Made by a program: the position numbers and the translations under genes | Sequence record: OR296290.1 | Length of the DNA: 64,000 nt | Direction: 5' to 3' (one strand) | DNA from: Escherichia phage SDYTW1-F1-2-2_3 | In this document: one piece after another, positions 35,827 through 55,516 of the stretch | How positions within the stretch are numbered: position 1 is the first letter of the stretch | Layout: each line of letters begins with the position of its first letter | Notes under the pieces: generated by a model | The model's input: only the letters and a program-made list of their open reading frames with translations | Told to the model about the DNA's origin: nothing | The model's database searches: none

Positions 35827-36045
35827 ATGAAAATGATGAAACAAGCTGTTTACGGTTTAGTCTGTTTAGGTGCAGGGGTTGTGGTTTCTACAGCAGTTCC
35901 TGTTAACGCAGTACATCCATTAGTCACAGCACCAGCTCCTGTTGAGAAACTTAGTTCTCAATGCAAGCAGCGAACTATTCAAAATAACTTGGTTGTTATT
36001 TGTCCTGATGCTGAATCTAACGCCCTGAGAAAGATACTACCTTAA
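35827..36045 (+). CDS. small secreted/membrane protein upstream of endolysin (possible holin-like role)
   Basis: 72 aa; N-terminal MKMMKQAVYGLVCLGAGVVVSTAVPVNA looks like a signal peptide or single TM. Confidence 0.35.
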   Translation: MKMMKQAVYGLVCLGAGVVVSTAVPVNAVHPLVTAPAPVEKLSSQCKQRTIQNNLVVICPDAESNALRKILP

Positions 36046-36074
36046 TTTAAAGGGATCACAAAAGGAGGTTAGAA

Positions 36075-36566
36075 ATGGATAACGTCGCATTGCCACCTGT
36101 ACAGTTAAACTTAAGCCCAGCTGGAATGGAATTCATCATGAAGCATGAGGGTATGAGAACCAAGGCTTATAAAGATTCCGCAGGTATCTGGACAATATGT
36201 GTAGGGGCTACGCGCGATATGAATGGTTATCCGGTTAGGCAAGGATTAACATATTCTATAGAGGATTGTCTAGCTCTGCTAGATAGAGACACACAAGACT
36301 CTGTTCGTGCTACTCAGAAAAACATAAAGGTTCCTTTGCTCGTTCATGAGTTCGATGCACTCACCTCTTTCAACTTCAACGTTGGTAGTGGGGCACTGAG
36401 CACATCTAAGTTAAGGAAGGTTATCAATGGAGATGTCAAAGGTGATGTATACTCAGAGTTTCTTCGTTGGGATAAAATTACGGTGAAGGGAGAGAAGCAG
36501 AGGAGTCAGGGTCTTCATAACAGAAGGGTTGCAGAAGCTGATCTTTATACCGAAGGTAAATATTAA
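36075..36566 (+). CDS. endolysin, lysozyme-type (phage lysozyme family)
   Basis: 163 aa; HEGMRTKAYKDSAGIWTICVGAT matches the catalytic Glu/Asp-Thr region of T4/lambda-type lysozymes. Confidence 0.65.
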   Translation: MDNVALPPVQLNLSPAGMEFIMKHEGMRTKAYKDSAGIWTICVGATRDMNGYPVRQGLTYSIEDCLALLDRDTQDSVRATQKNIKVPLLVHEFDALTSFNFNVGSGALSTSKLRKVINGDVKGDVYSEFLRWDKITVKGEKQRSQGLHNRRVAEADLYTEGKY

Positions 36567-36578
36567 TGGAGGTGCCTT

Positions 36579-37382
36579 TTGGCTATCGAAAATAATGCGG
36601 TAGTAGTTACCGACTTGAATCCACTCTATCCTCGTGATAGGGATTATATCTACGAAGGGGCGGCTCAAATCCGCCTCATCAAACAAACACTACAAAACAC
36701 ATTCCCCAATATCACTGAACCAGTTAATGTTGATTCTGATACTTTTAAGATTATATCAGAGAAGCTCAAGTTTACTGGTGATTCAATGGATGTTGGTGGG
36801 CTTATGATTAAGAACGCTACTCCGGGAACTGGTGATAAAGATGTTGTCACTAAGGGTCAGATGGAAGCATTCATGAAGAATTGGATGGAGAATAAACTTT
36901 ATCGTATTGGTTCTTATTACATCACTGAGGAAGATATTAATCCGGGTGATTCTATCTCTCTTGGGTTTGGTTCTTGGGCTAAGGTTACTGGTGTTATCAT
37001 GGGTACTGGTGTAGTTAACCCTGATGGTTCGGTTCCTAATGCTCAGCGTGTTGAATTCCAAGCAGGTGGTACAGGTGGTCGTGTATTTAATACCATTCGC
37101 ACTGAGAACGTACCTCTTATGACGATTGACGGTTCTAGTTTTAAAGTTTCAAGTAACACCCACTCACATAACATGGTCTTTGGTCGTGGAGATGCAAGTG
37201 GACACAACAGCTCTCCAAACTGGTATAACCCAGGAACTGGATACAGTAAGAGAACTGAAGCAGACACTCACACTCACACCATTTCTGGTTCTGTTAGTTT
37301 TGGTCGTGATGACATCTCACGTCAACCTATTAACACTTTGCCACCATTCAGAGCGGCTCACATTTGGAGACGTATTAGCTAA
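36579..37382 (+). CDS. tail fibre-like/receptor-binding protein (putative); TTG start
   Basis: 267 aa; first in-frame start after upstream stop is TTG with GGAGGTG SD; Gly/Thr/Ser-rich beta-type sequence. Confidence 0.4.
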   Translation: MAIENNAVVVTDLNPLYPRDRDYIYEGAAQIRLIKQTLQNTFPNITEPVNVDSDTFKIISEKLKFTGDSMDVGGLMIKNATPGTGDKDVVTKGQMEAFMKNWMENKLYRIGSYYITEEDINPGDSISLGFGSWAKVTGVIMGTGVVNPDGSVPNAQRVEFQAGGTGGRVFNTIRTENVPLMTIDGSSFKVSSNTHSHNMVFGRGDASGHNSSPNWYNPGTGYSKRTEADTHTHTISGSVSFGRDDISRQPINTLPPFRAAHIWRRIS

Positions 37383-37391
37383 GGAGGAATT

Positions 37392-52926: not shown

Positions 52927-52936
52927 TATAATATCC

Positions 52937-53767
52937 TTATTCCCAAGTTTTTTCGAGCCACGACCAATCAAATAGGTCTTCCGGAGTCTGACCAACAAAG
53001 AGCAGCTGAGCATTCTCAAGCATCTTCTCTTCATCTTCAGTATCGAACTTCTTATAATATTCCATTCGTACTATATGATACATGGTCCACTTGTCTGTAA
53101 CACCAGCCAATAACTTAGCTGCTGCTTTCTTCCCTATTCCTTGACGTCGAAGCTGAAGCTTACCGCCCCACATAACTTCTTTACGTTCTCCACATCCGGG
53201 GATATTATCTGTACCATCTCCAACCAACATCTGATAGAAGAAGTTTTGCCATGAAACTAAATCAGATACATAGTGAGGAGGAACCTCTTTCTGTCTTTCT
53301 CCACAAGCCCAACGGTAGTGCCATCCGGGAGTTATCAACAAATCTTTGTCTCTAGTACAAATGATAGTGTTCTTGTCCCTACGCTGCCTTTCAGCTAGTG
53401 CATCATCAGCCTCTCTCCCAAATACATCTATGTATTCATATTTACCTTTAATATAATCACCAACATTTTGCCAGTGAAAAGGTCTCTCTCCGGGAGGTCT
53501 ATTTGCTTTGTAGTCTTGCTGCTTAGCAACATCAAAGCGGAAGTTACCACCTTCGCTGAAGTAGAACACAACCTTACTACAACCAGAGCGAGCTATGATT
53601 GTATCAATCTTATACTGAAGTCGTTCAATCATGAAATTGTAATCAACTGGAACACGTCCTGTGTCAAGAAAGGGATGCTCCTGAGTAAGAGCACCCACTT
53701 CATATCGAAGAACGTCAGCATCCACTATAGCCACTTCAGGGAGCTTAACTTCTTCCATAAATATCAT
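52937..53767 (-). CDS. 5'-3' exonuclease / flap endonuclease
   Basis: 276 aa; FGREADDALA matches the G-x-EADD motif of the 5'-nuclease family. Confidence 0.6.
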   Translation of the reverse strand: MIFMEEVKLPEVAIVDADVLRYEVGALTQEHPFLDTGRVPVDYNFMIERLQYKIDTIIARSGCSKVVFYFSEGGNFRFDVAKQQDYKANRPPGERPFHWQNVGDYIKGKYEYIDVFGREADDALAERQRRDKNTIICTRDKDLLITPGWHYRWACGERQKEVPPHYVSDLVSWQNFFYQMLVGDGTDNIPGCGERKEVMWGGKLQLRRQGIGKKAAAKLLAGVTDKWTMYHIVRMEYYKKFDTEDEEKMLENAQLLFVGQTPEDLFDWSWLEKTWE

Positions 53768-54380
53768 CCTGAGCTTGAGCGATAATCCAATCTAAATCTG
53801 ACACTGCTGATTCAACAGTTGAGTCATTAAACAGCAGATATGTTTTTCTCTGCTCTCCTTCAATGTACGAGCGAGAGTCTCCATCGAAAGAACAACCATC
53901 CCTCAACACTTGGACAACTTGGACATTGAAATTCTTTTCTAGTTCTCGTACCTCTGCATCAAAACCTCCGTCAGTAAAAACAATAATGTCATCCTGACCC
54001 AGCCCTTCTTGTTTGATGCTCTTTACAGCAAGAGTCCCCATATGGTTGTTGCCGAACATAGGTTTTAAGAAGTCTTCACTTGTAGAAATCATCAAATCTC
54101 TTACAGACTTCCCTCCCCATTCTGGTCTAGGTTTTTCTTTCCATTCACGATCTTCATAACGTGCTAGAAAGTTTTCTAGAGGCATACCTAGTGCAGCAGC
54201 AGCTACCTTATACATTGGCTCCTTGAAAGATTTGGTTGAATAGCCATGATGGTACGAGTGTGCATTTACCCAAGCACTGGCTATTGTATCCTTACCACAA
54301 CCCGGAGGCCCATTAAGAATTACCACTAAAGGTTTATATTGGGAGCATTCCACCATATTAGTCAGTGCTGGATTATTCAT
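53745..54380 (-). CDS. P-loop nucleotide kinase (putative dNMP kinase)
   Basis: 211 aa; Walker-[12 protein letters not shown] near N-terminus. Confidence 0.45.
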
Positions 54381-55021
54381 GCTATTAGTCCTTGAAGTTC
54401 TTCTTTATCAAAATGCTTCTCTACCACATATTCATACAGATCTTTTAATTCTGCATAACGACGGTAGAAAGTTCCGTGTGACATACCAATAGTTTTCTGA
54501 ATGTGATCATGAGGAATACCCAAGAAGATCATTGAGAACATATTAGCTAACTTCTGAGTATCCATCGTATCACTTAAATCTTGGAAGAAGTAGAAGATAC
54601 GAGACTCCATGAATGGGTCACCAACAGAGTCTTGCTTATCCATAGCAATCTCTAAAGGACTATCAACCATATCAGGAGTACGGAACATATCAGCCTCTGG
54701 AATAGAGTAGATACGACGGTCCCCTACAGTCTGCCTATTTGAACGTATAGACCAGATAATGTTCTTGACTCGATAAGTCATATGCTCTTGGTCTTTCTCA
54801 TCCTCTAGGACTCTCTCATCCTGCTTAGCGAAGACAAATCTCCAAGCGTTCAAGAGCACTTCCTGTGCTACATCTTCTGCTTCATGGTAATCTCTGATAT
54901 CATACATGAAGAATTTGTGAACCACTTTCCAGTTCACTCTGTAAAACTCTTCATAGTTTGAGATGTATTTAATAGGGATTCCATGAATGCGATATCTTGT
55001 AGGTGTTGTCTTCTTCGCCAT
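54377..55021 (-). CDS. phage-encoded sigma-70-family sigma factor
   Basis: 214 aa; [14 protein letters not shown] resembles sigma region 2; C-terminal helix-turn-helix-like segment resembles region 4. Confidence 0.6.
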
Positions 55022-55281
55022 TATTCTATTCCACGCTCTTTCAGAGCTTCTAACAATCCATTGTGATTAGCAGCACATTCTGTGTACTGGTCCTGATACC
55101 ACTCCAATGTAGTGGCTAGTGCCTTTCCTTGAGCACTTTCTAAAAGAGGTAGGTCAACCCTACATTCAGCTTTTAGGTTTGTTGGTAAGGGCACTGATTG
55201 CCTGCTGTTGTCGCTCATTGAACAGGCTGACAAACTCATCACTAGCGCAGACATTATAAAAAACTGGTTTAGTTGTCTCAT
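55021..55281 (-). CDS. outer-membrane lipoprotein, o-spanin-like (putative)
   Basis: Start chosen at ATG 55279-55281; [20 protein letters not shown] signal with LSAC lipobox; overlaps 3' end of i-spanin-like gene in another frame. Confidence 0.4.
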
Positions 55282-55516
55282 AATGCATCTCTTTATAAAT
55301 AGTTTCCGTGTTCTTCTTCCAGTTAGATAAACTGGTAAGAACTCTCTGAGCAACTTCATCAGCTGCCTTACTTCTTTCAATCTCTAACTCTTGTTGATGC
55401 TTTTCTTTATCCAGATTGTTACTATCTGTTCTGTACTCATTAAACTTCATACCACCAAAGAACACAAGAGCTGAGAAAACGATAAACCCTAAGTTATCAC
55501 TTAACGTGTTTTGCAT
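55166..55516 (-). CDS. inner-membrane i-spanin-like protein (putative)
   Basis: 116 aa; N-terminal TM LGFIVFSALVFFGG then charged helical domain; overlapped by lipoprotein ORF. Confidence 0.4.
   Translation of the reverse strand: MQNTLSDNLGFIVFSALVFFGGMKFNEYRTDSNNLDKEKHQQELEIERSKAADEVAQRVLTSLSNWKKNTETIYKEMHYETTKPVFYNVCASDEFVSLFNERQQQAISALTNKPKS

Follow-up and report, generated by a model that had tools for sequence, protein, structure and literature searches.

Introduction

Phages of the genus Kuravirus (phiEco32-like phages, subfamily Gordonclarkvirinae), among them phiEco32, SU10, Paul and NJ01, carry four lysis genes at two loci, and in phage Paul, whose annotation was made by a phage-lysis group, these genes are labelled holin, endolysin, i-spanin and o-spanin and measure 219, 492, 351 and 261 nt. 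Here a 64,000-nt stretch of DNA from Escherichia phage SDYTW1-F1-2-2_3 (sequence record OR296290.1), hereafter the window, was analyzed for its lysis genes. All four are present here as well, with the gene order and both loci unchanged and with lengths identical to those of Paul: the gene of a 72-aa protein (p72) and a lysozyme gene lie in the tail block, and overlapping i-spanin and o-spanin genes lie in the middle block, about 19 kb from the lysozyme. The source of the window is a Kuravirus, with 98 phage records, nearly all of them Escherichia or Shigella phages of this genus, matching both lysis loci at up to 96% identity; in the best-matching records the holin-endolysin locus is 89-96% and the spanin locus 94-96% identical at the nucleotide level. 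Judged by its sequence, the window is an E. coli podophage of the phiEco32-like type. It should be noted that this two-locus layout is standard for Kuravirus and was already known and annotated in relatives, and that unlinked lysis genes are nothing unusual, with textbook parallels in T4 and T7; as a rediscovery of the annotated phiEco32-like arrangement the layout in itself is of little weight. Kuraviruses are however under development for therapy and biocontrol, and the real role of the 72-aa "holin" bears on how lysis is timed.

Phage lambda (S-R-Rz/Rz1) follows the same logic, from a holin through a soluble endolysin of family PF00959 to a two-component spanin with periplasmic cysteines, but its genes are contiguous, S has three transmembrane domains (TMDs) and Rz1 is fully embedded. 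In the podophage T7 the lysis genes (3.5, 17.5 and 18.5/18.7) are divided between the DNA-metabolism and late blocks, with a small holin gene right after the tail-fibre gene; the arrangement is the reverse of that in the window, since the amidase is in the replication block and the spanins are late, and T7 spanins are embedded whereas those of the window overlap. The T4 holin T has one TMD in N-in/C-out orientation, the class III-type topology predicted for p72, but at 218 aa it has a large periplasmic domain and does not resemble p72 in sequence, and its gene t is unlinked from the endolysin gene e, unlike the p72-lysozyme pair. A published spanin survey reports that the T4 spanin genes (pseT.3/pseT.2) lie far from t and e, as the spanin genes of the window lie far from holin and endolysin, and gives similar sizes for their products (i-spanin of 117 aa; o-spanin of 83 aa with two essential periplasmic cysteines); in contrast to the window, the T4 genes are separate, not overlapped, and the i-spanin has no cysteine. 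The same survey assigns the i-spanin of PhiEco32 to the JH2 family, together with Felix O1, and its o-spanin to a small family composed of NJ01, ECBP2, KBNP1711 and PhiEco32.

The overlapped spanin pair

Our analysis makes it probable that the window encodes a four-gene, two-locus lysis system, in which p72 would be the putative holin, the product of the neighbouring gene a soluble GH24 lysozyme expressed late, and the i-/o-spanin pair a contribution of the middle block (Table 1). The identities of the lysozyme and of the spanin pair, the order of the genes and the conservation of these features come directly from the sequence comparisons described below. A first-pass annotation of the window, made from its letters alone, had placed a lysozyme and a small protein among tail genes and an overlapped spanin-like pair next to a sigma-factor gene, and had proposed that lysis functions are split between the late and the replication block; all four open reading frames (ORFs) are present with the ends it gave, and the gene layout bears out the split.

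The i-spanin matches phrog_1152 ("Rz-like spanin", E = 1.2e-36). Its N-terminal hydrophobic segment (mean hydropathy over 17 residues, KD17, 1.9) is the sole one in the protein and is conserved in 17 homologues, giving a type II protein with a single TMD, and an AlphaFold2 (AF2) model built on a 17-sequence alignment has the two-helix periplasmic domain expected of i-spanins: a helix at residues 3-82, a break at 83-92, where P84 and the invariant C90 lie, and another helix at 93-111, at moderate confidence (mean predicted local distance difference test score, pLDDT, 67). The o-spanin carries the signal of an outer-membrane lipoprotein, a lipobox Cys without Asp at +2, and in the annotation of Paul it has a signal peptidase II (SpII) site at 19/20 (LipoP SpII call) and an Rz-like spanin as partner. 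It matches phrog_2425 and, weakly, phrog_456 (Rz-like spanin). The survey's rule on periplasmic spanin cysteines for intermolecular disulfides finds its counterpart in C90 of the i-spanin and in C40 and C69 of the o-spanin, all of them invariant. A tblastn search with the i-spanin returned 416 phage records, those outside Kuravirus being about 30% identical and coming from Felix O1-like, 9NA-like and Erwinia phages, in many of which an i-/o-spanin pair is annotated. The i-spanins of Felix O1-type phages (JH2 family) are about 30% identical over about 90% of the length of the i-spanin in the window and have annotated o-spanin partners alongside, whereas the o-spanin of the window, a member of the Kuravirus-restricted NJ01 family that is separate from the Felix O1 type, has only Kuravirus-like matches.

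The overlap of the two genes was compared at 11 loci, namely the window and ten related loci whose i-spanins are 43-92% identical to the query. The o-spanin gene begins in the +1 frame within the i-spanin gene and extends past its end, the overlap of 116 nt in the window being 116-131 nt long in the relatives. At all 11 loci, down to i-spanin identities of 43-46%, the +1 frame is open and encodes a signal peptide, a lipobox with Ser after its Cys, a PLP(T/V)NL motif (PLPTNL in the window), the two further cysteines and a conserved C-terminal stretch NHNGL-x-x-AL-x-x-RGI. Over the span of the overlap there are 0 stops in the o-spanin frame as against 7-15 in the third frame. Outside the overlap, divergence at third positions is 0.48 and 0.53 in the two genes compared to 0.12-0.32 at positions 1 and 2; inside it divergence is lower at every i-spanin-frame position, and no third-position peak appears in the o-spanin frame. 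This suppression of divergence, together with the conserved open +1 frame, indicates real dual coding and thus a real overlapped spanin pair. In two divergent relatives the o-spanin starts with TTG and not ATG because Tyr is replaced by Phe in the overlapping i-spanin frame, a good example of the compromise that dual coding imposes. The description of the minus-strand pair as spanin-like therefore held for every sequence feature by which spanins are recognised, and the features of both proteins identify it as a genuine overlapped two-component spanin. Literature searches retrieved no complementation report for any Kuravirus spanin pair.

The o-spanin is often missed or truncated by gene callers: database versions of 57 aa lack the signal peptide and lipobox, in VTCCBPA_211 the gene is annotated as 174 nt, and on metagenome contigs the stretch behind the i-spanin is left without a called gene. 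The full frame of 86-87 aa is present at all of these mis-annotated loci, and the spanin survey describes the same annotation bias. The practical use of the comparison is to show that o-spanin genes in the Kuravirus group are frequently truncated or missed and that some published labels do not fit.

The lysozyme and its neighbour p72

The lysozyme matches Pfam PF00959 (Phage_lysozyme, E = 3.7e-32) and phrog_7 (endolysin), has the catalytic triad E25-D34-T40 with the T4-lysozyme spacing (Glu-8 aa-Asp-5 aa-Thr), and its residues 6-156 align with phage endolysins of solved structure (PDB 8app, 7m5i) and with the P21, P22 and RrrD lysozymes. Its N-terminus is not hydrophobic (maximum over 19 residues, KD19, 0.95) and has no signal or signal-anchor-release (SAR) segment; the 24 residues before E25 hold D2, three prolines, Q10 and N12 and correspond in the alignment to the first helix of the fold. 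An in-frame start further 5' is not possible, and together with the non-hydrophobic N-terminus this makes the 163-aa protein a soluble, holin-dependent GH24 endolysin. One GenBank record and a recent study (PMC13417854) use the label SAR endolysin, and the latter ascribes to the Kuravirus lysozyme a signal peptide and to the spanin genes a position adjacent to it. With no SAR segment ahead of the catalytic Glu the label does not fit the sequence, and these statements on the lysozyme and on the position of the spanins fit neither the window nor the layout of Paul and phiEco32.

As the first-pass annotation had proposed, the lysozyme and the small protein before it are embedded among tail genes, flanked by a Peptidase_S74 tail fibre and a Gp10_C tail protein. 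This small protein, p72, is encoded 29 nt ahead of the lysozyme gene and has a single hydrophobic segment at about residues 7-27 as seen by hydropathy. The late block of the window contains no multi-TMD holin, in agreement with the first-pass annotation, which had however not connected the 72-aa protein with a holin. In the relatives p72 is the protein annotated as the putative holin of the family: it matches phrog_11161 ("holin", E = 7e-49), its orthologue in Paul is annotated "holin class III", and its homologues carry the holin label across the genus, genus reviews included. It has what is looked for in a holin, a small size and a hydrophobic segment that could serve as a TMD, with its gene beside that of an endolysin. 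A word-indexed search with p72 gave 24 clusters, with identity of at least 57% in all but one truncated entry, and an exhaustive search by profile through 1.84 billion representatives yielded only two more small homologues, at 51% and 39% identity, both uncharacterised and outside the Kuravirus-like set. In every homologue examined, the most distant ones (39-58% identity) included, the gene is directly upstream of a PF00959 lysozyme and the pair is usually in the same tail-gene context; in C3 podophages the two have been reported to be present or missing together, as one unit. This constant linkage is the best evidence for a joint role in lysis. Within the hydrophobic segment Q6, Y9, G10, C13, G17, S/T21 and A23 are kept even at 39% identity, and C13, G17 and S21 would form one helix face of the type found in packed transmembrane helices, which argues for a role of the segment beyond export targeting. 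The summed insertion energy on the Hessa scale is similar for p72, the i-spanin TMD and the o-spanin signal, and is a crude measure that does not discriminate between them.

Two other readings of the p72 sequence were discarded. The N-terminal MKMMKQ recalls the dual-start motif of lambda S (MKM), but homologues have other residues in place of Met3 and Met4 (MKILKQ, MKTLKQ, M-IIKQ). A weak match to phrog_812 ("Rz-like spanin", E = 0.009) was taken as an effect of composition, p72 having no lipobox (G-L-V-C13, with Val at -1). Immediately after the stop of the tail-fibre gene, in the 93-nt gap before p72, there is a GC-rich stem-loop (GCCCC-TTCG-GGGGC, 35740-35753, plus strand) with a weak T-tract, which might have an attenuating or a stabilising effect on the transcript that runs into the lysis pair.

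Alternative readings of the lysis genes

Several observations weigh against p72 being the holin. The domain search gave no match to any Pfam or NCBIfam holin family, p72 shows no homology to an experimentally characterised holin family, literature searches found no experiment on p72 or any homologue, and the PHROG label goes back to annotation by gene position; the genus-wide label is thus founded only on gene position and on one hydrophobic segment which also resembles a signal peptide. Residues 1-28 resemble a cleavable Sec signal, with two Lys in the n-region and a hydrophobic core, and end in a conserved P25-V26-x-A28 motif (A28 invariant, V at -3 in most sequences). These features suggest another reading, in which p72 is exported by Sec, its signal is cleaved or released in the manner of a SAR segment, and a disulfide-stapled periplasmic peptide of about 44 residues regulates lysis in a role comparable to that of the T4 antiholin RI, or has nothing to do with hole formation, the holin being another small membrane protein. 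T4 RI, which looks like a signal-peptide protein and yet is a SAR antiholin, would provide a precedent. The variable linker which follows A28 (residues 29-37 are the most variable part of the protein) and the nearly invariant residues 40-68, where C46 and C59 flank a predicted beta-hairpin as would suit an oxidising compartment, agree with this reading, although the AF2 model of p72 in which the hairpin appears is of low confidence (mean pLDDT 55) and not usable for a fold search. A 2026 study (PMC13417854) obtained "signal peptide, no TMD" with SignalP 6.0 and DeepTMHMM for the homologue of p72 in ZCEC16, and other conserved small membrane ORFs are present in the window (56836-56943, 7647-7799, 18361-18726 and 13284-13580). 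If this were true, the signal-less cytoplasmic lysozyme would be released through another holin or by an undescribed route, and p72 would represent a novel type of periplasmic lysis factor whose gene invariably accompanies that of the lysozyme. Residues invariant down to 39% identity are however unusual in a disposable signal peptide; the alternative candidates lie far from the lysozyme in early or middle blocks without lysis annotation, the sole one with two TMDs (11645-11806) is intact in only 32 of the 98 relatives, and an RI-like protein would find no T-like holin with a periplasmic domain as its partner. We therefore regard an exported, non-holin p72 as unlikely, and by linkage and parsimony we infer that holin is the most likely role of p72.

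The other two alternatives carry far less weight. The first-pass annotation had suggested that the lysozyme might be virion-associated, and its position between the genes for the tail fibre and the short tail fibre is all that would speak for an entry enzyme in place of an endolysin. Proteomics of SU10 particles detected the neighbours (CDS13, 16 and 17) and some non-structural proteins but neither CDS14 nor CDS15, so the lysozyme went undetected, and the cryo-EM study of SU10 assigned peptidoglycan digestion at entry to the ejection protein gp20, a transglycosylase. The window encodes its homologue with an SLT domain (PF01464, E = 2e-24; phrog_12507); this is the virion's own cell-wall enzyme and the GH24 enzyme is therefore not needed for entry. 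The latter is moreover a bare catalytic domain without a structural module, and a virion-associated role is very improbable. The 72-aa neighbour gene and the published virion data mostly settle the earlier doubts on holin and endolysin. That the minus-strand pair is no spanin at all, its out-of-frame ORF being due to chance and its 116-aa member a membrane protein of another kind, could appeal to the Pfam search, in which the i-spanin had no Rz match, neither protein was significant against Rz or Rz1-type families and the o-spanin only had a weak match to LysC (E = 0.049). Conservation of the frame, lipobox and three cysteines at 11 of 11 loci, the phrog_1152 match, homology to the annotated Felix O1-like pairs and the presence of the PhiEco32 pair in the published spanin catalogue leave this reading with almost no probability, and the sequence effectively refutes it.

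With p72 taken as holin, lysis could proceed as follows. p72, a bitopic protein with a predicted N-in/C-out orientation, would be made together with the lysozyme from the late tail operon, and late in infection it would build up in the inner membrane while the lysozyme accumulates in the cytoplasm. The spanins would probably be made from the middle phase on and would span the periplasm, inactive as long as the peptidoglycan is intact. In the lambda system spanins are inactive until the wall is degraded, and because of this early spanin synthesis should be harmless. Triggering of p72 would give the lysozyme access to the wall, and breakdown of the wall would free the spanin complexes to disrupt the outer membrane.

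Table 1. Position and properties of the lysis genes and associated features in the window.
Feature	Coordinates	Strand	Remarks
p72, putative holin	35827-36045	+	72 aa; ATG start; strong ribosome-binding site (RBS) AGGAG
GH24 (T4/P22-type) lysozyme endolysin	36075-36566	+	163 aa; strong RBS
i-spanin	55166-55516	-	116 aa; N-terminal TMD at residues 9-25, charged remainder
o-spanin	55021-55281	-	86 aa; signal peptide, lipobox L-S-A-C20, Ser at +2
i-/o-spanin overlap	55166-55281	-	116 nt; i-spanin C-terminus and (+1 frame) o-spanin signal peptide/lipobox
ECF-type phage sigma factor, gp36 homologue	54377-55021	-	phrog_1740, E = 3.4e-45
Insertion of ~55 nt	55517-55573	-	between ancestral RBS and i-spanin ATG; sigma-70-like -10 box TATAAT (55557-55552) and new RBS
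Strong intrinsic terminator	55590-55607	-	AGCCACCTTCGGGTGGCT then T6; between 248-aa gene and i-spanin; conserved in relatives; annotated in phage Paul
Tail fibre, C-terminal Peptidase_S74 chaperone domain	33580-35733	+	717 aa; upstream of p72
Tail protein, Gp10_C domain (short tail fibre of SU10)	36579-37382	+	267 aa; downstream of lysozyme
Internal virion (ejection) protein, SLT transglycosylase domain	42494-43276	+	SU10 gp20 homologue
Small single-TMD ORF	56836-56943	-	35 aa; conserved PHROG family of unknown function
Small single-TMD ORF	7647-7799	-	50 aa; conserved PHROG family of unknown function
Two-TMD ORF	11645-11806	-	53 aa; no PHROG family
Early block	1-20.5 kb	-	
Late block	21.3-51.7 kb	+	packaging, head, tail and ejection genes
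Middle block	51.7-64 kb	-	replication genes

Transcription of the spanin locus

The stop codon of the o-spanin and the ATG of the sigma-factor gene share one base (TAATG), and the spanin pair is possibly translationally coupled to this gene. In Paul a macro-domain gene is found between the two; the window phage is without it, as is NJ01. From homology to phiEco32 and SU10 we infer that the tail block would be transcribed late and the spanin/sigma region in the middle phase, as well as the corresponding transcription units. A point against this route for the spanins is the intrinsic terminator, since in most relatives the i-spanin ATG follows its T-run by only about 13 nt, which means that either read-through transcription or a promoter not seen has to serve the pair. 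The window phage differs from its Kuravirus relatives in having the insertion of about 55 nt before the i-spanin, which is absent from all 101 matching phage records, the ten related loci and IMG/VR; it is specific to this phage and carries a candidate sigma-70 promoter. A search for the gp36-type promoter motif (tAATGTATAtA) turned up no convincing copy immediately ahead of either p72 or the i-spanin, and the 34 sites found, with 26 expected, are not above chance. Its best matches are at 47043-47053 and 29536-29546 on the plus strand and at 56432-56442 and 62348-62358 on the minus strand. That at 47043 is an exact copy and coincides in part with a stop/start junction, and the two minus-strand TAATGTATACT copies lie 35-57 nt upstream of the starts of middle genes.

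Other membrane proteins and cell-wall hydrolases

The first-pass annotation had considered a holin outside the window, or a complete lysis cassette elsewhere in the genome. The annotation of Paul from 10.4 to 79.4 kb contains no such cassette and no other holin, endolysin or spanin, the first 10.4 kb outside this range should hold packaging and head genes, and in the part of this range lacking from the window the only membrane-annotated gene encodes a 43-aa "membrane protein"; a holin lying outside the window thus finds no support there. The other small membrane ORFs of the window are in early or middle blocks and have no lysis annotation. The two single-TMD ORFs and the two-TMD ORF of Table 1 would be the fallback holin candidates if p72 were not the holin. 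As a holin in its own right the two-TMD ORF was rejected: it is covered to at least 80% in only 32 of the 98 relatives, straddles two annotated genes and belongs to no PHROG family. An ORF at 59921-60136 was set aside since it is inside the DNA polymerase gene, and so was another spanin-like pair (13058-13580), since its downstream ORF lacks a lipobox and has an N-terminal part that is an out-of-frame overlap. A paper on the "lysis cassette" of KBNP1315 concerns an SP6-like phage and is irrelevant for comparison.

The minus-strand genes at 13284-13580 and 18361-18726 encode conserved early proteins each with an N-terminal TMD, the first also with a coiled-coil-like tail; their labels, "DNA helicase" (phrog_12154) and "terminase" (phrog_13168), are implausible and probably propagated mis-annotations. 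A third peptidoglycan-hydrolase gene is found in the early block (13780-14169, minus strand), encoding a 129-aa protein with a Pfam Hydrolase_2 domain (SleB-type, E = 1.7e-7), in which no signal peptide is obvious by eye and whose homologue in Paul is annotated "cell wall hydrolase". The early block further encodes a 99-aa lipoprotein (10674-10973, minus strand) with lipobox L-T-G-C and a match to PF24052 ("Phage lipoprotein family", E = 1e-34), which could be a superinfection-exclusion or receptor-masking protein.

Compared to the complete genome of Paul the window is without about 13 kb of replication and nucleotide-metabolism genes. At about 20400-21280 the minus-strand early block abuts the start of the late block, two regions which in published linear genomes are the two physical ends; the joining of these ends indicates an assembly of the circularly permuted or concatemer type as the origin of the window, and a terminal repeat of about 193 bp should lie within this interval.

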